The notes beneath the pieces were generated by a model, which worked only from the letters and a program-made list of their open reading frames with translations, was not told the origin of the DNA and ran no database searches. From assembly GCA_965248535.1 (NCBI GenBank), contig CBDFJR010000005.1, positions 2,368,001 through 2,432,000 on the forward strand: a DNA stretch of 64,000 nucleotides. The letters run 5' to 3'. The stretch comes from Phormidesmis sp. GTDB lineage: Bacteria; Cyanobacteriota; Cyanobacteriia; Leptolyngbyales; Leptolyngbyaceae. Every line of letters begins with the position of its first letter. The stretch's first letter is position 1. This document shows positions 6,623 through 60,938 of the stretch, piece after piece. The translations under genes were made by a program, and so were the position numbers.

Positions 6623-9399
6623 GAGAGTGAGCCTATAGTTGAAAATGACTTCAGAAATTTGCGAATTTTACCTGTCTGATACTCTGCGGTGAGTTTGCTA
6701 AGTTCAGTCGTGAACCCTTTGAACTGATGATTTCTCGCGGTCATGTCTCTTAGAATGCCCTCGATCGTTTGCACATCTCCCATCATGGCCAGATGATAAA
6801 GCTGATCGATAACCGCTTGGTCAGGAAGAATCATTTCGTCAGCGGTAACTGCAACGTCAATGCGTTGAGAATCATAAATCCACTCAAGTTTTAACAGAGT
6901 TTGCAACGTGTCTAACAACGTCTCAGCCTGCAAAGGTTTTGCCAAAAAGATGTCTGCACCTGTCTGCAAGCTACGCTGGTGATCAGCCTCAAAAGCGCTG
7001 GCGCTCACCACCACGATCGACAGGGAATTTGTTTGCGGATTGTCTCGAAGATGATGGATTAGTTCAAAACCGTCCATCACAGGCATCGAGAGATCTAGAA
7101 TCACCGCATCGGGCTGATTTGTTAGGGCAGCAGTGAGTCCTTGTTGACCATCATCAGCTTCAAAAACGTGAAATCCCAGGCTCTGTAGTAGGGTAGCCAG
7201 ACCCGATCGGTGATTGAGATCGTCATCGACAATGAGAATCCGAGGCACAACGTGCTGAATGCCGATAATTTTTTGGCGATCGGGCACCGTTGTCAAGTCG
7301 TCCCAATCGTGCGAGATCGGCATGTTTAGATCAATCGAGAAGACACTTCCTTCTCCCAGTCGGCTCTGAACGGTGATTTGACTAGCCATCTGAGCAACGA
7401 TCTTGTGGCTAATTGCCAGCCCTAATCCCGTTCCCTCCGCTTTGCGTCTCGCGTCTCCCGCTTGCTCAAACGGCAAAAAGATTTTTCCCACCTGTTCAGG
7501 TGAAATGCCGACTCCGGTGTCTTCAACTTGAAATTGCAGTTTACACGTCGATGAGTCAACTTGTTCAACCAGCAGCACCCGAAAGGTAACGCTGCCCTGA
7601 TCCGTGAACTTGATGGCGTTTCCTAATAAGTTGATCAACACCTGCCGCAATCGCTTTTCATCCGTCAGAATGCCAGAGGGCAAGCGATCGCTGAATGCCG
7701 CTTCAAACCCAATCCCTTTCTGTTCAGCGCGAATTCGACAAATCTCAGTCACTCCCTTCAAAAAGACTGGCAAATGAACTGGAATCGGCTGCAACTCTAA
7801 CTTACGCGCCTCAATTTTTGACAGATCTAAAACGTCATTAATCAACATCAGCAAGTGAGAACCGCACTGATGAATGATGCCGATTCCTTCTAAATCTTTG
7901 GGAGCCAGCGTTGGCGATCGCTCTAAAACTTGGGCATAGCCGAGAATGCCGTTGAGCGGAGTGCGAAGTTCATGACTCATGTTCGCTAAAAATTCGCTCT
8001 TTGCCTGATTAGCTGAATCCGCTAATTGCTTGGCTTTTACCAATTCATGAGTCCGTTCTTCGACCTTGACTTCTAGATTTTTAGAGTAGTCGAGTAGCTG
8101 ACTGTTGGCTGCTTCTAATCGGCGATTTGCGTCTTCTAAATGTTGCTGTTTGTGAGCCAGCGTTGTGGCGATGATACTGCCCAAAAACGACACCATAACT
8201 GGAGTCATTGGCACCAGCGCATGGTTCAAAAACAATCCATAGACTCCACTACTCATGCTCACTCCGGCTCCCACCGTTGCCCAGAGAATCTTGCCCCCCG
8301 GAATGCGGCTTTTGCGACCACCCGCTAGCCACCAACTGCCGACCGATCCAATTAACGATCCCAGCACAATCCAACCAGTTTGCTCACCGCCTGAGAAAGC
8401 CCTCAAATTTTGCTGTCCTACCTTAGCTGATTGCACCAGATGATAGGCAATATTGGCGTGAACTACCACACCCGGAGTCGGCTTTTGAGCCGAAACCCAG
8501 GAAGAACTGTAGGGAGTGCTGAAAAAATCATTGGTGCTGGCAGCGATCGAGCCAATCAACACCATGCGATCGTGCATCACCTCCGCCGGAACTCGACCCG
8601 CCAAAACGTCGCGCATTGCCACCGTCCGAAATGCTTTTTCTGAGCCGTGCCAGTTGAGAAGAACTTGATAACCGCCTAAATCAGCCTCAGAATATCCAGC
8701 TTCTTGGGGCTTTAATGGCATGTACACTGATTTTCCTAGTCGAAACGTTTGCTGATGGGGATCAACACTTTCTAGCGTTATGCCGTCGGCTTCGAGATAT
8801 TTGAGGGCAACGCTAGCTGCAAGTCCGGCTTTGAGGGTGCCTTGCTCTTTGGTGTCTTCCGCCGTCAGCAGGGCACGACGAATATGGCGATCGCCGTCCA
8901 ATACTAAATCCGCTATTGCGACCTGATCGAGCTTTTTTAGCTCAGGGGGCGGACTGACGCGATCGCCCGTAATTTTCTCAACTCCAATCAAATTTGGAGT
9001 TGTTTTAAACACGCTCACAAGCTTTTCATGACCCGTTCCTTCGGGTAAGTCTCGATAGAGGTCAAGCCCGATCGCTCTCGGCTTCTGCGCCCGAATTTTT
9101 TCTATCAACTCAGCCAGCGCCCAATCAGGAATCGGCCACTTCTGCACGGATTGAATATCTTGCTCATCAATCGTCACCACCACGATAGAGTCGGCAAAGG
9201 TCTCTGAAGAGCGCAACCGAAACAACTCATCTCGTGCTTTCCACTCTAATAAATTAAAGAGTCCTAACGACTGACCTGCCATCACCGTCAACGCCACACT
9301 GGGAGCCACAATCAAGATGCTGCGGTTGCGATAAAAAAAGGTTTTGAGTGTTCGCCACATAGAATTGATATCAGCAGATAGGGGCAGGTTAGCGGGCAT
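6619..9399 (-). CDS. CHASE2-domain hybrid sensor histidine kinase with C-terminal receiver
   Basis: [11 protein letters not shown]...AIGLDLYRD (CHASE2), TM helices, [16 protein letters not shown], receiver. Confidence 0.92.
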
Positions 9400-9407
9400 T
9401 TAAACAG

Positions 9408-9445
9408 GATCGGGTGCGTTGTGAATTGTCTTAACGCACCCGATC
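9408..9445. repeat. perfect 13-bp inverted repeat (GATCGGGTGCGTT-N12-AACGCACCCGATC)
   Basis: Read directly; intergenic between DUF928 and the CHASE2 kinase. Confidence 0.75.
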
Positions 9446-9497
9446 GCCATCATCCTTTTAGCCTCTGGGGTGTCTCAATCGACTGAGAAAGCTAGGG

Positions 9498-10556
9498 CTA
9501 ATGAGCCGAGATCACCAAGGGTGCTTGAGCGATCTCCTTTAAGCCCACTGACGATAGAAGCTCAGACCAATCTTTAGCGAGGGCGGCACTGTTTGACTGA
9601 GTGGCTCTTAGGGTCGCTAAGGTGGCTACGCAGTCATACCACACGCCGTTGGCACCTAGAGCAGTCGCTTGTTTGAGCACATCGGGCTGTTTGAGCGCAG
9701 AGGCTAGCGCAGCACCCGGCTGAATCCGGCGAACCCAACCATTGACATAGGGCGTGCTGGGGCTGAGTTTTCCATCAACTTTCAGCGCTAAGAACCACTG
9801 ATAGTTTTTTCCTATCTCTAAAGCTAGAGCCTCGGCAGGAAGTTTGACCGCCATGATTCCTGTCTGACCTGACACAGGCACCGTCATTTGAGTGTGGGTG
9901 TTTCCGGCTTCATCTTTGAGACTGAAGACTGCTTCCTTGGCGATCGAGGCGGGGAGATAAACCAAAATCGTCGGATGGGCAGACACTGTAGTGCCATAGA
10001 AGGTTTGGGGCAAAACCGCAATCATTGCCAGGGGAGTGTCTGATTTTGAACCCGCGATCGCGGCTGCATTGAGCGGATAGTTCCCCACTCGCGATGCCCC
10101 CCCTGATCCTTGGCTCGGCGCACCATTGCCCGCTGCTGGAGTGAACACTTGCCCCCGTGATGCCCCCCCTGATCCTTGACTCGGAGCGCCATTGCCCGCT
10201 GCTGGAGTGAACACTTGCCCTCGCGATGCGCCCCCCATTGAGCCGTGGGGCGATCGCTGTCCCGAAGTCGGAGTAAACAGGCTACCCCGTGAGGCTCCAC
10301 CCGTCGATTGAACGGGCACAGCATTTTTAGCAGCAGGTGAAAAGAGCACCATTCCCCGTGATGCCCCCCCTGTCGATTGACTCGGAGCACCGCCCCCCGA
10401 TGGTGGTGTAAAGGTAACCGCTTGGGCATTTCCGACTGAAATGAATGCACTAGTGGCAATCAGGGCAATGCCTAAAGAAAACTGGTTGGTCATCTTCTGG
10501 AGATTGGCAGCGCCGATTGCACTTAACCGATTTGTTAACCCTGGATATTTCATCAT
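9498..10556 (-). CDS. DUF928 domain protein with five N-terminal GGASR repeats
   Basis: TVSAHPTILVYLP, LEIGKNYQW, GWVRRI, GVWYD, WSELLSSVGL motifs; signal-like N-terminus. Confidence 0.88.
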   Translation of the reverse strand: MMKYPGLTNRLSAIGAANLQKMTNQFSLGIALIATSAFISVGNAQAVTFTPPSGGGAPSQSTGGASRGMVLFSPAAKNAVPVQSTGGASRGSLFTPTSGQRSPHGSMGGASRGQVFTPAAGNGAPSQGSGGASRGQVFTPAAGNGAPSQGSGGASRVGNYPLNAAAIAGSKSDTPLAMIAVLPQTFYGTTVSAHPTILVYLPASIAKEAVFSLKDEAGNTHTQMTVPVSGQTGIMAVKLPAEALALEIGKNYQWFLALKVDGKLSPSTPYVNGWVRRIQPGAALASALKQPDVLKQATALGANGVWYDCVATLATLRATQSNSAALAKDWSELLSSVGLKEIAQAPLVISAH

Positions 10557-52833: not shown

Positions 52834-54690
52834 TTAGGCGCGATAGGGCTGGGCTTGAAGTTCAAATAACTCGGCATAGAGACCCTGATGCCGCATTAGA
52901 TCTGGGTGGGTGCCGCTTTCTACAATGCGTCCTTGATCCATCACATAAATGCGATCGGCCATTTTCACCGTCGATAAGCGGTGGCTGATCAAAATCGCCG
53001 ATCGCCCTTTAATCAACTGTCTAAAATTCTCATAGACCACCTCCTCAGCTTTGGCATCTAGGGCACTGGTCGGTTCGTCGAGCACGACCAGTTGCGAATT
53101 GCGTAGAAACGCCCGCGCCAGCGCAATTTTTTGCCACTGTCCTCCACTCAATTCTTCCCCTTGGTGAAACGATCGCCCTAGCCAAGTCTCGTAGCCATCG
53201 GGCAGGGTTTGAATCACCGCATCGGCACCAGAGGCTTTAGCGGCTAACTGAACCTGCGGATCTTGAGGTGGCAACTCCACATTTCCTAGCCAAATATTGG
53301 TGTGGGCAGTGAGGTCATAGCGCACATAGTCCTGAAAGACGACACTGACCTGGCGACGCAAATCGGCGATTTGGAAGTTGCGGACATCGATTCCATCCCA
53401 GGTAATCTGTCCGGCGGTCGGTTCATATAAGCGGCAGAGTAGCTTGATCAGCGTCGTTTTGCCGGAGCCGTTTTCGCCGACGAGTGCCACCACTTCTCCG
53501 GGGCGAATGACTAAATCAATGCCTTGCACTGCCTGCCGTTGGCTGTGAGCATATTGAAAATCAACTTGATGAAACACAATACCCTGCTGCATGGGTTGCG
53601 GCACGGGCCGGGGCTGAACCGGATCAGGAAGCTTGGTTTCTAGATCGAAAAACTCATTGAGGTTGCACAGATACAGATAGTTTTCGTGCATACTAGACAG
53701 CCCGCCGAGTAAGGCTTGCAGCGAGCCTTTACCGCGCTGTAGAGCTTGATGATACAACACGAGATCACCCAGTTTTAGCGCGCCATTGACTGCTTGTAGA
53801 ATAATGAAGCTGTAGAGTGCCAGCATCAATATCGCCCCGATCGCTTGGACACCGATGTAGACTAAAGCCTGTTGCCGATCGATCGCGAGTTTTTCTCGAT
53901 GCAACTGTTTTTGCAATCGCAAGACCCATTCGGTAAAGTAGGGCCCCAAATTGAATAAGCGCAGTTCTTTGGCAAAGCCTGCCGAGGCGACAATGCTTCC
54001 TAAATAGCTGATTTGTCGGTGCATTTGGGTGCTGCGGCGCTCCCATTCATAGCCGATTTTGCCGTATTTAAACTGGGCAAGGAGGGTGGGCAGCGTGGTT
54101 AAAACCAAGGCCGGTAGCGTCACCCAGTGAATCGTGACGAGTAGCCCGATCATGGTGATCAGCGATAGCCCATTTTGCACCAAGGCGGTGGCGGTATACA
54201 TCACATGGGTGGGGCGTTGCACCTCCCGCTGGGCGCGTTGCAGAATATTGTAGTATTCTGTGTTTTCGTAGCATTCAATATCGACGGCGATCGCTTTGGC
54301 ATAGAAGCGTGCCTGCATATATTCGGTGAGTTTGAGTCCTTGCGCTTGGGTCACCCAGTTGTCGAAGGAAGAGCACAAGAGGTTTAACAGTAAGCACCCC
54401 CCCGCCAGTCCGAAGAGTATGGCCAGTTGGGGCATGATGGTGGCCCGATGTGCTGCATCCATGTCTGTTTTGATGCTGATGGTGAGCACATCGACGACCC
54501 ATTTGTTCACATAGAGGCTGGCGAGGGAGAGTCCGCTTTGAAGCAGCAGTAAACTCACATGGATGACTGTCCATTTAGGACTGCTCTGCCAGACCAATTT
54601 TAGGGCAGACAGCGATCGTATGCTGTGGCTTATTTGGCGAGAGAATTGTTTTAGACTACGAATAAACCAACGATTCACGGGCTTAATCAC
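52834..54690 (-). CDS. ABC exporter (TMD + NBD), RiPP-cluster type
   Basis: AKELRLF, GENGSGKTT, LSGGQWQKIALAR, LDEPT; no C39 peptidase domain seen. Confidence 0.92.
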   Translation of the reverse strand: MIKPVNRWFIRSLKQFSRQISHSIRSLSALKLVWQSSPKWTVIHVSLLLLQSGLSLASLYVNKWVVDVLTISIKTDMDAAHRATIMPQLAILFGLAGGCLLLNLLCSSFDNWVTQAQGLKLTEYMQARFYAKAIAVDIECYENTEYYNILQRAQREVQRPTHVMYTATALVQNGLSLITMIGLLVTIHWVTLPALVLTTLPTLLAQFKYGKIGYEWERRSTQMHRQISYLGSIVASAGFAKELRLFNLGPYFTEWVLRLQKQLHREKLAIDRQQALVYIGVQAIGAILMLALYSFIILQAVNGALKLGDLVLYHQALQRGKGSLQALLGGLSSMHENYLYLCNLNEFFDLETKLPDPVQPRPVPQPMQQGIVFHQVDFQYAHSQRQAVQGIDLVIRPGEVVALVGENGSGKTTLIKLLCRLYEPTAGQITWDGIDVRNFQIADLRRQVSVVFQDYVRYDLTAHTNIWLGNVELPPQDPQVQLAAKASGADAVIQTLPDGYETWLGRSFHQGEELSGGQWQKIALARAFLRNSQLVVLDEPTSALDAKAEEVVYENFRQLIKGRSAILISHRLSTVKMADRIYVMDQGRIVESGTHPDLMRHQGLYAELFELQAQPYRA

Positions 54691-54740: not shown

Positions 54741-55715
54741 TCACGACGCAGAGAGTGACAAAGCAGAGTCTATGGGGAATAGTGTGGAAGCATGGGGCGG
54801 TTCGAGCAGCGATCGCAACCCTTGATCGAGCGACCAGCGGGGGCGAAAATTCAACGTCGATCGCGCTAGAACAATGTTGGCTTGGGAGTGTTGAATATCG
54901 CCAGGGCGACGGGCTGCAAATCGAATCGGACTCATTTCACCGGGATGGTTAGCGCGCAGGCATTCCAGCAATTGCAGCAGTGAAATCGCTACACCCGTGC
55001 CAATATTGCAAACTAAAGAGGTGCCAGCAGCGCGATCGATTTCCAACGCTTGCACAAATGCTTGGGCCACATCTTTTACGTAGATAAAATCGCGGGTTTG
55101 TGAGCCATCGCCGTAAATCGTAATCGGTAACCCCTGACTCAGCGCCTGAGAAAATCGCGAAATCACCCCAGAATAAGCCGAATTTGGCGCTTGACGCGGG
55201 CCAAAAACATTAAAGAGCCGCAGACCGACAAAGGCAAATCCGAGCCGATCGGCATACAAGCTGGCGTAGTGCTCACTGGTTAGTTTTTGTAAGCCATAGG
55301 GTGAAATCGGTGTGGTTAAATTGTCTTCTGCGATCAGCCTTGTGGATAAGTTTCCATAAACTGCCGCTGAACTTGTAAACACCAGCTTAGGAATCGACAG
55401 CGCTTGACACAAGCTGATCACCGCGATCGTGGCTGATAGATTATTGTGATGGGTGTGAATCGGATCTGACCAAGATTCACCGACAGATGGCGTTGCAGCT
55501 AGATGGGCTATGCCATCGACTGGACTCAAAAAATCTTCTGGTTGGCAATGCTGAATCTCTTTTTGGAGCACCGACAATGAGGGATGCCGGGGCAAATGCT
55601 TTAGCGTTCCTGTGCGTAAATTGTCCACAACGGTGACACAGTGCCCTTGGGCTAATAGCGCTTCGGTTAAGTGGGAACCAATAAATCCGGCTCCTCCAGT
55701 GACGATGATGTGCAT
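54741..55715 (-). CDS. NAD-dependent nucleotide-sugar epimerase/dehydratase
   Basis: TGGAGFIGSH, SSAAVYG, YGLQK, FNVFGPRQ, TRDFIYV. Confidence 0.92.
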   Translation of the reverse strand: MHIIVTGGAGFIGSHLTEALLAQGHCVTVVDNLRTGTLKHLPRHPSLSVLQKEIQHCQPEDFLSPVDGIAHLAATPSVGESWSDPIHTHHNNLSATIAVISLCQALSIPKLVFTSSAAVYGNLSTRLIAEDNLTTPISPYGLQKLTSEHYASLYADRLGFAFVGLRLFNVFGPRQAPNSAYSGVISRFSQALSQGLPITIYGDGSQTRDFIYVKDVAQAFVQALEIDRAAGTSLVCNIGTGVAISLLQLLECLRANHPGEMSPIRFAARRPGDIQHSQANIVLARSTLNFRPRWSLDQGLRSLLEPPHASTLFPIDSALSLSAS

Positions 55716-55733: not shown

Positions 55734-56792
55734 TTAAACGGTGAGGGATAGCAGCGAGTTTTGGGAAGATAGGATCTGATGACTGAGAGATGCCAAGTCA
55801 TCGGTGATGAGTGTGCAAAGCTGATCTAATTGCTGTAGATCATCAGGACGAGAGAGCAACCGGATCGGGATAGTTTGCGCGATCGCTGCCAATTCCTGTA
55901 GCTCCTGCTGCTGCTGGAGGGGCATGAGAATATCTCGCCCGTAGCTGTGCACTAAAAGATGCTGGAGGGAGGCGATCGCCGAGAGAGGTTGAACGATCGC
56001 GCTGTCACGAGAGGCTTCTCGCGGTTGCAGCACATAAATCGCCGCTAAAGGTAGAGAATGCTCGACAAACCGTTGAGGTAAGCGATCGTGCTCTGGCTGC
56101 AACTCAAAAAAGCATTTATCTAAGCGGCTAAACACCCGCGTGAGCGGTGCAATCGGAACCGTCAGCGCCTGGAGTGAAGGCTGCCACAGTCGCAGTGCTG
56201 GGTAGCCCGGTTGCACCCAAATCTGATCCTTGATGCTGTGCAGAGCGGCAATATCATCGGTCAGGGCCGCATATCCGCGCATCGCTAAAGCGGCGGCGGT
56301 GGTCGATTTGCCTGCACCAGATGCTCCGATTAGCGCGATCGCTTGTCCCTGAATTTTGACGACGCTGGCGTGTAAACAGAGTGTTCCTCGCAGCCGCAGC
56401 ACATGCCCCAGCACGCCACCGAGCAGCATTGAAACGGCATCCTGAAACAGGTGTTCTGCTGACCAAAAGCCCCAAACTCGATCGCCTGTCGGATGAATCA
56501 CAAATTCCAGAACGTCATCGTGCTCGACCGATCGCAGCCGCCAATAGGTGCCCTCTGCGGTCTCGGTTTGCCAGAGACAAAAGCCTGCCTGCTGTTCATC
56601 TGCTGTTGTTACTTGCCAAAACCGATGCTCTAGCAGGGGATGATCTAGCGTGGGTGCGCCAACAAATTCTACTGTCACCGTTGACGTTTTAGACGGCAGT
56701 GAATGGGTGGGTGTTAAACCGGGGAGGAATCGATTGGAGACTAGGCTCAAACCATAGACGGTATAGCAAGAATTGTCCTCTAGATTCTGCAT
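55734..56792 (-). CDS. HPr-kinase-like RiPP kinase (lasso-cluster type)
   Basis: YTVYGL start, LHASVV, Walker A GASGAGKST, LTDD, PGYPALRLW; start MQNLED (56792) preferred. Confidence 0.85.
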   Translation of the reverse strand: MQNLEDNSCYTVYGLSLVSNRFLPGLTPTHSLPSKTSTVTVEFVGAPTLDHPLLEHRFWQVTTADEQQAGFCLWQTETAEGTYWRLRSVEHDDVLEFVIHPTGDRVWGFWSAEHLFQDAVSMLLGGVLGHVLRLRGTLCLHASVVKIQGQAIALIGASGAGKSTTAAALAMRGYAALTDDIAALHSIKDQIWVQPGYPALRLWQPSLQALTVPIAPLTRVFSRLDKCFFELQPEHDRLPQRFVEHSLPLAAIYVLQPREASRDSAIVQPLSAIASLQHLLVHSYGRDILMPLQQQQELQELAAIAQTIPIRLLSRPDDLQQLDQLCTLITDDLASLSHQILSSQNSLLSLTV

Positions 56793-56916
56793 TGGCAATT
56801 CAACAGTAGATAAACATAAAATCGGCAGTTTGCTGCAACATAGGTGAGCGATCGTTTCAGGCGATCGCTCACCTATTCTCAAACTTGGCTCAATCTATAA
56901 TCAAGCTCGACTAAGC

Positions 56917-57093
56917 TCACGTCGTCGAGGGGAAGGTGGTATTTGTGGTACTGTTAGTAGTCCCGACCGTAGGACTCATACCTGTCGTCATGGGACTACC
57001 ACTGCCCCCGCCGCTTTGGGTCAGTCCAGCGATCGTGCCATGGGCCTCGAACACTGGTGATTCGTAGTCTTTTTGATGATCATTCATAGTCAT
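56917..57093 (-). CDS. RiPP precursor peptide with lasso-type leader and Ser/Thr-rich core (not in ORF track)
   Basis: MTMNDHQKDYESPVFEAHGTIAGLTQ|SGGGSGSPMTTGMSPTVGTTNSTTNTTFPSTT*; YxxPx(F)xxxG-x5-T(-2) leader motif; AAGGAG RBS at 57097-57102; alternative start ATG 57087. Confidence 0.85.
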   Translation of the reverse strand: MTMNDHQKDYESPVFEAHGTIAGLTQSGGGSGSPMTTGMSPTVGTTNSTTNTTFPSTT

Positions 57094-57205
57094 GAACTCC
57101 TTTGTTGGGTAAATAGTGTGAGCAGATGCACCCTGAAACTTTTAGCTGAGAACAAATGAAGCGGTTCTTTCCCATAACATTAGGATGTGGGTCAAGTGAC
57201 TGATC

Positions 57206-58435
57206 TCAGGCGGTTAAACTCAATGATTTATCGGCATGGCCGCGCTGTTTGATTTGACAAAGCCGATCGCAGGCGTTGAGAAAAAGCTGCTTAAATCGCG
57301 ATTCATCAAACTGATCGACCATCAGTTGGCGGGCTTGTGCGAGATGGTCGCGTCGCGCTTCGGGTGGTTGGTTTACCACTTGCACGATCGCTGCTGCCAA
57401 TGCTTCTGGATTCTCCGGCGGCGCTAAGGTGCAGACCTCCGGCACAAACGTACCATGATAGGCTTTTAAATCGACACTAATCACCTCACACTCACAGGCG
57501 ATCGCTTCAATCAACGTCGAGGGAAAGGCATCGGTGTAGGGATAGCTGATCACCACATCCGACAGGTTATAAATAGTTGGCATCCAGAGATGGGGAAAGT
57601 AAGGTAAAAATCGGAGGCGATCGGTGAGTTGGTATTCCTCGGCTCGCGCTTCAATTCGATTTCTCATCTCTTGTTGTTCTTTCTGAGGGGCGCGCCCCAT
57701 CACCAAAAAAACCATTGCTGTAGGTTTTGTTAGCTGGGGATAGGCTAACTGATAGGCATGAAAGATATCATCATGTTTGTAGAGCGCTGCCCAACCACGT
57801 GGCGACATAATCACCGTAGTCTCTTCGGGGAGCCGCAACACATCGCGTTTCCACTGTGCCACATTGCGGGTAGTGCCCCGGCAAAATAGCTGGGTTTTGG
57901 TGCCGATCGGAATCAGTTCAACCCGACCATCAGCAGGCATCAAGGCTTGCGCTGGCTCCAGTAGCTGCGGGGTTTCCACAATCAAGGTATCTGTATTTGC
58001 AAGCACAAATTCTGCTAACTCGCTCTGTTCCCTATTGATCTGATTTAGGAGCATATAATTCAGAAACCCCCAAGCGGATACAACGAGCGGTCGCACCCCC
58101 GCTAAGACACAACTGCGAGCGTGCCAATTGATCGCATTGACATGCACCACATCGGGCTGGAACTCGTCGAACAATGCTCGAATGCGCGGTGCCATGTCGA
58201 TCGCCATCTGATGGTCATCAAAGGTGCCACCGGGATTATCATCGTTTTCTAAGTGCCACTGACTCGGAACATAGCGGTAATTTGCGGGGGGATTGCCTTC
58301 ATAAAAATCTGCATCGCCCAGCAGACAGACGTGATGCCCAGCCTCAATGAGCCAACGCAGGGGACGCTCTGCCGCAGTGCCCCCACAGGAAACAACTAGA
58401 ATTCGCATGGGATTAGTCCTGACTATAAATCTCAC
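57206..58435 (-). CDS. GT-B (GT4-like) glycosyltransferase
   Basis: MRILVV, FQPDVVHVN, SAWG, SPRG, DAFPSTLIEAIAC, ENPEALAAAI. Confidence 0.88.
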   Translation of the reverse strand: MRFIVRTNPMRILVVSCGGTAAERPLRWLIEAGHHVCLLGDADFYEGNPPANYRYVPSQWHLENDDNPGGTFDDHQMAIDMAPRIRALFDEFQPDVVHVNAINWHARSCVLAGVRPLVVSAWGFLNYMLLNQINREQSELAEFVLANTDTLIVETPQLLEPAQALMPADGRVELIPIGTKTQLFCRGTTRNVAQWKRDVLRLPEETTVIMSPRGWAALYKHDDIFHAYQLAYPQLTKPTAMVFLVMGRAPQKEQQEMRNRIEARAEEYQLTDRLRFLPYFPHLWMPTIYNLSDVVISYPYTDAFPSTLIEAIACECEVISVDLKAYHGTFVPEVCTLAPPENPEALAAAIVQVVNQPPEARRDHLAQARQLMVDQFDESRFKQLFLNACDRLCQIKQRGHADKSLSLTA

Positions 58436-58460: not shown

Positions 58461-58784
58461 TTAAATACTGTTGTCTTCAGTGCTGTGGAGTTCGACAACG
58501 CCCGCTTCTAGCCATTGGGTGACTAAGCTCATCAAGTCTGCCTGTAGGCGCTCTGGCTCTACTGCATACTCTTCTAACAATGTTTTGTAGGCAGATTCGA
58601 TCGAGGCTGCTTGAGTGAGCGCAGAGAGCATCTGGGTCGCGATCGTGTTTTGGCTAAAGTAAACTTCAGTGGTCATATTCAACAATGCCGATTCGCCCGA
58701 CATATCTTGTATCAAAACCTGGGGAGACAAGACTATTTTTTGAGCGGATGAGATTTGCGGTGCCAGGGAATCAGTACTCAACAT
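58461..58784 (-). CDS. PqqD-family RiPP recognition element (lasso B1)
   Basis: GESALLNMTTEVYFSQN...LLEEYAVEPERLQADLMSLVTQWLEAGVV. Confidence 0.88.
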   Translation of the reverse strand: MLSTDSLAPQISSAQKIVLSPQVLIQDMSGESALLNMTTEVYFSQNTIATQMLSALTQAASIESAYKTLLEEYAVEPERLQADLMSLVTQWLEAGVVELHSTEDNSI

Positions 58785-59136
58785 AATGTAGTCAACGAAG
58801 TCGATAGTGATCTATATCTAAGCTCTTCAGGGAGTTTAACAGTCATCCGACAGTGAGGTTCTAAGGTTTACGGAAATTAGTTATTTCTCTATGAAGTTTA
58901 AAGTCTTATCTTCTGTTTGAGCGATTTCTGGTCTTGTGAGGTATACATGAACACTGCGGTTCTGTTGCACAAACATGGCTACTTAGGTTACGCCGCAGGG
59001 ATAATCGGGGTTTCCTAAGAGCTTATATGAACGTATCTAAAACATTTGGCCCTTGCTTTTTAAAGATAGACAATGTGATTGTGACAGATGATCGAGTTGT
59101 CTCAGGCAATGGAGGTGAAAATTTGTGAGTGTTCAG

Positions 59137-59619
59137 TTACGAGAGTGATTTAGAAAAGGCGCTAAACTGTTGATGGACATCAGGGCGATCGTTCAACACT
59201 AGCTCCTCATACTCGATCCAGGCGTGGGCACAAAATGTTCCGTGTTCTCGCTGCACCCCAATTCGCACAGTTGTTTTGACCCCCTGACAGCGGAGCAAAA
59301 ACCAGAGCACCAGCGATCGTTTTAAGCAGTTACCCCAAATGCTCGATCGGGCGGCTAGATTCACGATTTGAGCGATGTGCTGCAACTGAGATAACTCGGT
59401 TGGCGGTCTAATAGGGCATCGTGCCGTCAGCCAATCGAGCCAGCATTGCGTCTGCTGCAACCCTCTGAGAGATAAACAGCACGACACGATCGGCAACAAC
59501 AAAAAGGCTTGCAAAAAGAGCGTGCGATCGCATGGAGGAAGCGCCATCCAGAGGTGTCCTTTACGAAAAAGTCGCTGCATGGGAATCATGACAAAGAGGT
59601 TGCTGAAACGATCAAACAT
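59137..59619 (-). CDS. lasso B2-type leader peptidase (transglutaminase-like)
   Basis: NCLKRSLVL catalytic Cys, RIGV, AHAWIE. Confidence 0.9.
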   Translation of the reverse strand: MFDRFSNLFVMIPMQRLFRKGHLWMALPPCDRTLFLQAFLLLPIVSCCLSLRGLQQTQCWLDWLTARCPIRPPTELSQLQHIAQIVNLAARSSIWGNCLKRSLVLWFLLRCQGVKTTVRIGVQREHGTFCAHAWIEYEELVLNDRPDVHQQFSAFSKSLS

Positions 59620-59702: not shown

Positions 59703-60938
59703 TTGCTCTTTCAGGGTTTCAATTTGATGGATCTTTCTTCTTTGACTCAAGGCTGTAGTGCTGAAGCTAATTTCTTGCTTGCCTGTGTCCGGCTCTATTG
59801 CAGACCCTCAGGCGCAGCAGAGATGAGATTGAATCTCGATGCTGTGAATTGGTCAAAACTGATCGAAATCGCCCACTTCAACAGCGTCATCCCGATTTTG
59901 CACAACAGTTTGAACGCGATCGCATCTCCCCATGTTCCCCCCGATATACTCACTGATCTTTCTGAAGCAACTCGTGCAAACAGCCACCTCAATCTGCTGC
60001 GTGCTAAAGAACTGCTCTGCCTGGTAGCGTGCCTAAAAAAACAAGGTATTGATGTCATTCCTTTTAAAGGACTGGTCTTAGCAGAAGTTGCTCATGGCAA
60101 TTTAGCGATGCGGCAATTTGGCGATTTGGATTTGTTAGTTCGTGATCAAGATTTTTGGCAAGCAAAGGCTGCTTTAATGGCTCAGGGATATTGCACCGAA
60201 ACAACCGCGATCGAAGAAGCGATCGGCTTTCGGCGCTACTGTCAAATTTCTTTGTCTAACTCAGCCCGATCGAGCAGTTTAGATCTGCACTGGGGCATTC
60301 CACCCCGGCGATTTTGGCATCGCGATCGCACCCCCACTCTTTGGCAAAATTTGCAGACCCGATCGCTAGCAGGACAGACCATTCAAACCTTTTCGATCGA
60401 GGTGATGTTAGTCATCCAAGCTATTAATGCGGTCAAAGAACCCCAGCGGCGGCCGGCTCTAAAACAGGTTTGTGATTTAGCAAAACTGATTCACGCTTAC
60501 CCAACCTTAGATTGGGAGCGAGTCTGGGAGATAGCAGGTGAACTCCGGGTTCAGACACTGTTGCTGATTAGTCTCAGTCTGGTACATCAACTCCTACAAG
60601 TGTCTCTTCCTAAAGAGATTCAAGCTGAAATTGCCAAAAATAAACGCATAGAAGCGATCGCCCGCCGAGTCAATCAACAAGTTGTTGCCAAAATCGATAC
60701 GCCATCTGAGAGTTGTGACCGATGGTGGTCAGAATATTGGTATCAGCTTAAAACCCTCGATCGAGGCTGGCATGGGGGAGTGATGATCTTACAAGAGTTG
60801 GGCATCAGGCTGATCGAGATTGGCAGGCGGATGACTCCTAATGAGCACGATTTACAGATGGTATCTCTGCCCGCTTCTCTGCATTTTGTCTACTACTTTT
60901 TGCGCGTTTTGAGAGTGGCGAGTAAATATCTCTCTTAG
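59703..60938 (+). CDS. nucleotidyltransferase (NTP_transf_5 type, lasso-cluster associated)
   Basis: IPFKGLVLA...RQFGDLDLLV, LDLHW, LDWERV. Confidence 0.88.
   Translation: MLFQGFNLMDLSSLTQGCSAEANFLLACVRLYCRPSGAAEMRLNLDAVNWSKLIEIAHFNSVIPILHNSLNAIASPHVPPDILTDLSEATRANSHLNLLRAKELLCLVACLKKQGIDVIPFKGLVLAEVAHGNLAMRQFGDLDLLVRDQDFWQAKAALMAQGYCTETTAIEEAIGFRRYCQISLSNSARSSSLDLHWGIPPRRFWHRDRTPTLWQNLQTRSLAGQTIQTFSIEVMLVIQAINAVKEPQRRPALKQVCDLAKLIHAYPTLDWERVWEIAGELRVQTLLLISLSLVHQLLQVSLPKEIQAEIAKNKRIEAIARRVNQQVVAKIDTPSESCDRWWSEYWYQLKTLDRGWHGGVMILQELGIRLIEIGRRMTPNEHDLQMVSLPASLHFVYYFLRVLRVASKYLS

Follow-up and report, generated by a model that had tools for sequence, protein, structure and literature searches.

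A small open reading frame on the minus strand of a Phormidesmis contig joins a lasso-type leader to a core without a single acidic residue, and the question raised by this locus is what such a precursor is made into. The window (the whole stretch of DNA that was analysed) comprises 64,000 nucleotides of Phormidesmis sp. (GCA_965248535.1, contig CBDFJR010000005.1), and the features on which the argument depends are given below in its coordinates, with the basis of each call in brackets.

52834..54690, minus strand: MsbA-like ABC exporter, permease and ATPase fused (domain matches)
54741..55715, minus strand: GalE-like NAD-dependent sugar-nucleotide epimerase/dehydratase (PF01370; TIGR01179 188.6 bits, below cut-off)
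55734..56795, minus strand: HprK-like peptide kinase (PF07475 and TIGR04352, both below cut-off; tree)
56840..56876, minus strand: hairpin with a perfect 15-bp stem and a 7-nt loop, including the cyanobacterial GCGATCGC palindrome (folding)
56917..57093, minus strand: precursor peptide gene; the first ATG gives 58 aa (translation, alignments, profile search and core statistics)
57097..57102, minus strand: AAGGAG ribosome-binding site; spacing of 3 nt to the first ATG, 9 nt to the Met3 ATG (direct sequence reading)
57206..58435, minus strand: GT4 glycosyltransferase of the GT-B fold (PF00534/PF13439; alignment, structure model and synteny)
58461..58784, minus strand: B1, a stand-alone PqqD-type RiPP recognition element, RRE (PF05402 40.5 bits; lasso PqqD models below cut-off)
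59137..59619, minus strand: B2, a lasso-type leader peptidase of the transglutaminase fold (NF033537 80.4 bits versus a cut-off of 33)
59703..60938, plus strand: NTP_transf_5 (PsmN-like) protein of the nucleotidyltransferase (NT) fold (PF14907 177.9 bits; DLD motif)

Translation of 56917-57093 on the minus strand gave MTMNDHQKDYESPVFEAHGTIAGLTQSGGGSGSPMTTGMSPTVGTTNSTTNTTFPSTT followed by a stop codon, exactly as the first-pass annotation had read it, flanked by the genes of the GT4 (57206-58435) and the HprK-like kinase (55734-56882), and the AAGGAG box that it had named is present at 57102-57097 on the minus strand. The same annotation had called the ORF unannotated and 58 aa long. The former holds only for the ORF track that its reader had been given, because a 56-aa form is already present in the protein database (P0002), and the latter is correct when counting from the first ATG. 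The true start is probably the Met3 ATG at 57087, giving a product of 56 aa (MNDHQ...): the ribosome-binding site lies 9 nt from Met3 versus 3 nt from the first ATG, which makes the shorter product likelier, and in the alignment the start of the closest homologue (P0007) matches Met3.

The leader (residues 1-26) carries YESPVF, G19 and T25 at position -2, in agreement with the lasso-type leader that had been proposed, and the cyanobacterial lasso-precursor model NF033528 matched through the leader only, at a sub-threshold 17.2 bits versus a cut-off of 33. A recount of the core (residues 27-58, 32 aa after Gln26) reproduced the composition first reported, with 6 Ser, 11 Thr, none of Asp, Glu, Lys, Arg or His, and a C-terminal Thr; the core also lacks Cys. 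A word-based protein search with the precursor returned the self-match P0002 only, and a profile built from 9 homologues recovered the window precursor from 1.84 billion proteins at an E value of 1.3e-18. Homologous small genes occupy the same operon position in each related cluster examined. Judged by these comparisons, the ORF is a genuine RiPP precursor, far beyond chance.

An ordinary lasso core hidden by a frameshift was ruled out, the remaining two frames being full of stops, and a motif scan for a second precursor within the window gave the known one and one chance match in a stop-containing stretch. Scanning the minus strand around the precursor for a sigma-70 promoter or an intrinsic terminator yielded nothing beyond chance. 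The hairpin at 56840-56876 lies past the stop of the precursor gene and ahead of the kinase start, has z-scores of -4.6 and -5.0 (0/200 shuffles folded equally well), and is matched by comparable hairpins 3' of the precursor genes in all five sibling intervals folded. From its folding and position, it is likely a transcript-stabilising or attenuating element.

The precursor lies in an 8-kb minus-strand operon with the order B2, B1, GT4, precursor, HprK-like kinase, epimerase and ABC exporter, and the NTP_transf_5 gene is divergent. All eight cluster genes are open with intact catalytic residues, the scores of the kinase, B1 and the epimerase falling short of the curated cut-offs for the NCBIfam models named. 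B2 is the sole B2 of the genome (99.8% complete), and its Cys98 and His132 are invariant in 43/43 B2 rows. The GT4 likely starts at Met10 (58408). The kinase has an intact P-loop (GASGAGKST); its frame is open to a TTG at 56882 while homology begins near Met30, and a start at Met30 (56795) is likely, giving 353 aa, equal to the Leptolyngbya boryana orthologue. The GalE-like epimerase presumably supplies the sugar donor. The gap of 352 nt between B1 and B2 (58785-59136) has no open frame. Within it, a 35-nt stretch (59088-59122) is probably a short dispersed repeat, because unrelated and much deeper contigs match it in all four sequencing runs. An Rfam scan of the window found no family, and a repeat search showed no flanking repeats of the kind left by a mobile element.

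An enzyme that could close a lasso ring was then sought in the window and the genome. The window has no Asn-synthase-type (lasso cyclase) gene, and the whole genome (99.8% complete) has no lasso cyclase over the NF033535 cut-off of 525 bits, the best match scoring 114. Two Asn-synthase paralogues on another contig reached 53-115 bits against that cut-off and were classed as generic asparagine synthases (TIGR01536). A cyclase remnant in the B1-B2 gap was ruled out, there being neither an open frame nor a tblastn match. Since both the cyclase and a carboxylate side chain in the core (no Asp or Glu anywhere) are absent, a macrolactam is excluded on the enzyme and the substrate sides, and the claim that this peptide cannot form a standard macrolactam stands. 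Three of the five sibling genomes similarly have no match over the cyclase cut-off. Contig 2 of the same genome (944908-946468; L002, L113, L114) contains an Asn-synthase-like gene in two overlapping frames (ORFs of 453 and 129 aa), for which a frameshift or a misassembly could be the cause; no B1 or B2 lies nearby.

Surveying the phylum placed the window in a family of cyclase-less loci. B2 homologues were found in 32 of 401 sampled genomes, and about 20 kb were typed around 38 of the 41 B2 places from this search (the other three being G000, G009 and G053), by tblastn with reference proteins checked against Pfam. Among the 43 B2 loci typed, which are relatives and thus non-independent samples, 14 had a GT4 without a cyclase, 19 a cyclase without a GT4, and 10 neither. 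L. boryana and about 15 Nostocales genomes also have the cyclase-less gene set, with ~50% identity and varying gene order, for example as B1-GT4-precursors-kinase-GT2-(epimerase)-B2-ABC-NT in L055, L056, L059 and L063. L143, the L. boryana locus, belongs to the bacterial family of the window; it was found by the precursor profile and typed after the 43, and it too has a GT4 and no cyclase. It has the same genes as the window and the proteins closest to the window's, with identities of 61% for B2, 58% for the nucleotidyltransferase, 53% for the kinase, 68% for the epimerase and 49% for the GT4. Comparing the window with L017, a lasso locus of the same bacterial family, the operon reads B2-B1-GT4-A-K versus B2-B1-C-A-K; by gene order, the GT4 occupies the operon position held by the lasso cyclase in related clusters. 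Public records name the family 'hypothetical protein', with two records reading 'RiPP', and a full-text search of open-access papers and preprints found no paper describing a cyanobacterial B1/B2/GT4 family.

Two Nostocales genomes hold both a GT4-type and a canonical lasso cluster (G213 with L055 and L058; G091 with L063 and L065). The paired clusters both have YxxP leaders, which raises the question of leader discrimination as studied for linear polyphosphorylated peptides (LPPs) and paeninodin in Bacilli. The survey also turned up orphan B1-B2 pairs (L018:10024-10828, L019:9307-10042, L020:9979-10732 and L078); a cyclase, kinase, GT4 or recognisable precursor is absent from their vicinity, and they sit amid unrelated housekeeping genes (hydantoinase, PNPOx, kaiABC). 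Two further cyanobacterial clusters (L021:5110-10589 and L062:8086-10512) have B1, B2, kinase, ABC and nucleotidyltransferase genes and neither cyclase nor GT4. The kinase of L021 is apparently split in two, and the L021 precursor (9269-9499) carries a long core rich in Gly, Asn and Pro. Both clusters may be another linear variant or may be decaying.

Conservation of the precursors pointed to two core motifs. In alignments A2 and A5, Y10, P13, H18, G19, L24, T25 and core Ser5 (Ser31) are invariant in 15/15 rows, core positions 3-5 are conserved across the alignments, and Thr36-Thr37 (core 10-11) is nearly invariant. The 36 distinct cores collected comprise 35 GGS-type cores and one from Pannus (L105). 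All 35 GGS-type cores have Ser at position 4/5 and Thr-Thr at about 10-11, and none has Asp or Glu at 7-9, the positions singled out in homologues by the first-pass annotation. By comparison, among 25 distinct control cores from cyclase-type loci, for which the cleavage site was assumed from the motif, Thr-Thr occurs in 1 and Asp/Glu at 7-9 in 18. In Pannus a leader resembling those of the family precedes three TPQTT repeats, and core position 7 is Asp. No other core of the GGS type is as long as that of the window (32 aa), which also leads in Ser/Thr (17) and in Thr-Thr motifs (5); P0007, the closest relative, is 62% identical and has a run of seven Thr from position 10. On this alignment evidence, the window peptide belongs to a conserved family, of which it is the extreme case, and is not unique. 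The multi-site Thr-Thr scaffold proposed earlier is borne out in that Thr-Thr is common to all precursors beside B1-GT4 pairs; the label 'mucin-like' suits the window peptide more than the family, because most relatives carry 1-3 Thr-Thr motifs per core.

The GT4 has an Asp and Glu (D302-x7-E310) that are invariant in 22/22 relatives, and its structure model (pLDDT 87.6) has SPS, BshA, MshA, PimA and WaaG as nearest folds. On this model, it is a standard retaining GT4 of the GT-B fold and should be competent for nucleotide-sugar use. These neighbours are GT4s for small molecules, lipids and polysaccharides; none is a peptide glycosyltransferase. A predicted GT4-B1 complex, using a 22-row GT4 alignment, scored 0.11 against a mark of 0.32, a value that speaks neither for nor against the pairing. 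A search of genome contigs with the single GT4 protein as query gave no match, whereas a GT4 profile gave 22 genome loci and 14 metagenome loci, none of the metagenome matches being more than 52% identical to the window GT4 and the contig of P0007 not being recovered. B1 is present in all 22 genome loci (21 by tblastn, L112 by Pfam) and immediately adjacent in most.

Trees of the individual proteins gave differing histories. The window B1 groups with the B1s of GT4-type clusters (SH-aLRT 86), the window kinase with the kinases of GT4-type clusters (SH-aLRT 89), and the window B2 falls among lasso B2s in a clade apart from the Nostocales GT4-type B2s. From these placements, the B1-GT4-precursor-kinase block looks co-inherited and B2 appears to have a separate history; with the window B2 in a different clade from its Nostocales counterparts, the family is thus mosaic.

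The pairing of B1 and GT4 extends beyond the B2-containing family. In distant loci of the GT4 clade that lack B2, kinase and nucleotidyltransferase, the GT4 is still paired with a PqqD gene and accompanied by small genes with YxxP or WxxP leaders and Thr-Thr cores, and Thr-Thr is the one core feature common to all precursors found beside B1-GT4 pairs. Peptidases (S8, C25) and additional glycosyltransferases occur near such loci. Four of these precursors (L107:4862-5068, L108:5170-5379, L131:4929-5264 and L105:11335-11610) have a YxxP leader and 3-5 tandem TPQTT units of about 10 residues; their loci contain a GT34-like gene and a GT2-GT4 fusion (and an S8 peptidase in L108), with no B2, kinase or nucleotidyltransferase. 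Five precursors come from Chloroflexota MAGs (L110:10549-10710, L111:8395-8556, L112:9222-9446, L133:2755-2976 and L135:11678-11878) and have a WQEPx[IV]L leader, with cores ending in [SN]TT and one further residue in L110, L111, L112 and L135 and in STTIG in L133. Two tandem GT4 genes are present at these loci, a PqqD RRE was detected beside them in 4/5 (not L133), and a C25 peptidase lies downstream in L112. A precursor was not found at L103 or L109, nor resolved at L127, and in L109 and L127 the sequence stops not far past the GT4. L103 (8709-10188, a Nostoc MAG) is a lone B1-GT4 pair that has the gene of a group II intron reverse transcriptase close by and, within 9 kb, neither precursor nor kinase nor B2.

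The window thus has both the PqqD-adjacent GT4 and the Thr-Thr precursor that characterise the proposed family of RRE-linked GT4 'Thr-Thr' peptides, an unpublished grouping, and its relation to described systems can be stated as follows. With lasso clusters it shares B2 and B1, the YxxP leader (Y10, P13) and Thr at -2 (T25); it differs from them in having neither the macrolactam synthetase C nor an Asp/Glu acceptor at core 7-9, and is not a lasso peptide system. Paeninodin and pseudomycoidin share with it split B1/B2 proteins, an HprK-like kinase, a PsmN-like NTP_transf_5 protein, an ABC exporter, the YxxP leader and Thr at -2. In contrast to the window, those two have a cyclase, Asp/Glu at core 7-9 and a C-terminal Ser that is phosphorylated. 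This C-terminal Ser, the substrate of paeninodin-type kinases, is absent from the window core (C-terminal Thr) and from all 36 family cores (0/36 ending in Ser).

Glycocins (sublancin, glycocin F, thurandacin) are, like the proposed product, ribosomal peptides defined by the glycosylation of a linear precursor. They are disulfide-stapled helical hairpins, and no RRE is known to take part in their making. In the window the GT4 is accompanied by a PqqD RRE and Cys is missing from the core, whereas glycocin glycosyltransferases belong to GT2 and act mainly on Cys, according to a study which also describes glycosylation as rare among RiPPs, with glycocins as the only class defined by it (PMC11912497). 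As described in the same study, the davasins, Ser-polyglycosylated lasso peptides, share a dedicated glycosyltransferase (IgtG) in a lasso-type cluster; IgtG acts on a single Ser of the mature cyclised lasso, unlike the window, where the candidate sites are Thr-Thr and there is no lasso (PMC11912497).

The closest published analogue is the group of LPPs from Bacillota, described in 2026 as linear and cyclase-less, with an HprK-like kinase that phosphorylates core Ser3 (Popov et al., Nat Commun 2026, PMC13381572). Going by that paper, the window shares with LPPs the absence of a cyclase, a stand-alone RRE, a kinase resembling HprK, an NTP transferase, an MsbA-like pump, a YxxP leader and phosphorylation near the core N-terminus (Ser3 in LPPs; Ser5 as proposed here). 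There are four differences: the leader peptidase is a signal peptidase I of archaeal type (SpI, SipW-like) in LPPs and a lasso B2 in the window, the conserved LPP core set is described without a dedicated RRE-linked GT4, the LPP leader motif is longer (YxxPxVLxHQxIxFETxxS), and LPPs are described as restricted to Bacillota, whereas the window family is found in Cyanobacteria. No SpI-type peptidase over the TIGR02228 cut-off was detected in the genome, which has one weak match (25 bits) about 1.5 Mb away. With B2 present, a GT4 added and no SpI-type peptidase, the window system is not an LPP in the published sense. By analogy, it would work like a linear analogue of the phosphorylated lasso peptides with RRE-linked glycosylation on top.

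The reading I consider probable, from gene content and conservation, is a lasso-derived, cyclase-less pathway that would lead to a linear phospho-glycopeptide without a macrolactam; a linear, Thr-rich product decorated with sugar and phosphate appears most likely because a GT4 stands where the ring-forming enzyme should. In such a pathway, the leader motif YxxPx[LF]..HG..I.GLT would be bound by the stand-alone RRE B1, and the GT4, provided with a sugar nucleotide by the GalE-like epimerase, would then O-glycosylate Thr of Thr-Thr, core 10-11 first, at up to five motifs in the window peptide. The HprK-like kinase would phosphorylate core Ser5, after which the PsmN-like NTP_transf_5 protein would place a hexose on the phosphate. 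B2 would cleave after Gln26, between Thr(-2)-Gln(-1) and the core, and the ABC transporter would export a linear phospho-glycopeptide with an uncharged backbone. Thr-Thr goes with the RRE-GT4 pair and is hence assigned to the GT4; the GGS motif goes with the kinase and nucleotidyltransferase pair, so that Ser5 is assigned to the kinase and after it the PsmN-like enzyme. Both assignments are based on co-occurrence among related, non-independent clusters. The invariance of core Ser5 suggests it as the candidate phosphorylation site, and its assignment to the kinase and the PsmN-like enzyme is modelled on pseudomycoidin and LPPs, PsmN being required for the hexose on phospho-Ser of pseudomycoidin (PMC6993621).

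It is also conceivable that the product is LPP-like and nothing else, that is, leader-cleaved and (poly)phosphorylated with sugars on phosphate alone, the GT4 and the epimerase extending a phosphate-linked glycan or serving polysaccharide. The kinase, NTP_transf_5, RRE and MsbA-like pump do form the LPP/paeninodin tailoring set, and the LPP authors suggest that the NTP transferase depends on a partner enzyme outside the core cluster (PMC13381572); the fold neighbours of the GT4, none of them a peptide glycosyltransferase, fit as well. What makes this account unlikely is that B1-GT4 adjacency and Thr-Thr-rich precursors persist in loci without a kinase or nucleotidyltransferase, and that Thr-Thr stands at a fixed distance from the cleavage site in 35/35 family cores versus 1/25 control lasso cores.

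Decay of a lasso cluster after loss of the cyclase, with a small ORF drifting towards low complexity and no functional product, would account for the simple composition of the core, the absence of the cluster from the seven same-genus genomes searched and its position at a synteny break, and other cyclase-less or orphan B1/B2 loci do exist (L018-L021, L062). A remnant would not be expected to keep eight open genes with intact catalytic residues, conserved core positions 3-5 and 10-11, and mostly synonymous strain differences in its enzyme genes, nor to have the same cyclase-less set retained at ~50% identity in L. boryana and about 15 Nostocales genomes, and I consider this explanation very improbable. 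Even harder to credit is a ring closed all the same, whether by a cyclase whose gene lies elsewhere or by some non-canonical bond, for instance a Ser/Thr ester. The two Asn-synthase paralogues on another contig could be cited in its favour, as could a lasso cluster that works without B proteins, from which it follows that lasso systems can be incomplete (PMC6993621), but the paralogues are generic asparagine synthases at 53-115 bits versus 525, the core has no carboxylate side chain to offer, and 3/5 sibling genomes have no match over the cyclase cut-off. The phospho-glycopeptide pathway accordingly remains the preferred reading.

The cluster is rare in its surroundings. A precursor-profile search found the precursor in 2 of the 90 genomes of the window's order, its own genome included, and searches of same-genus genomes gave B2 in 0/7 and the precursor in 0/7. 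The cluster flanks (compared with L117-L126) are 79-85% identical to the window in five same-genus genomes, on different contigs in 5/5. The sparse distribution and the separate contigs of the flank orthologues suggest that the 8-kb cluster is an accessory island at a rearrangement point. Contigs from run X2, a second sample of the same organism, showed 10 differences in 3886 nt when compared with the window. Three of these fall in the precursor (P41T, V43F, N47H), all non-synonymous, within 19 nt and in the variable part of the core, while the enzyme genes have 5 synonymous and 2 non-synonymous differences. The pattern, at small numbers, agrees with conserved modification sites followed by a core tail that varies.

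On a wider scale, I tentatively propose that the RRE-guided GT4s may mark out a class of ribosomal O-glycopeptides not yet described ('Thr-Thr glycopeptides') in Cyanobacteria and Chloroflexota. One branch would have re-used the lasso toolkit with a glycosyltransferase in place of the cyclase and would secrete mucin- or antifreeze-glycoprotein-like phospho-glycopeptides, of which the window peptide would be the most densely modifiable. A surface, hydration or ice-binding role for the peptide is pure speculation. If the proposal is true, an RRE-dependent GT4 acting at ruler-like distances from the leader would be new enzymology and a tool for site-directed O-glycosylation of peptides. The family would be a second, independent case after the Bacillota LPPs of lasso machinery turned linear, here with the canonical B2 peptidase retained. 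Because L. boryana is genetically tractable and has a sibling cluster, what such peptides do in filamentous cyanobacteria would be directly testable.
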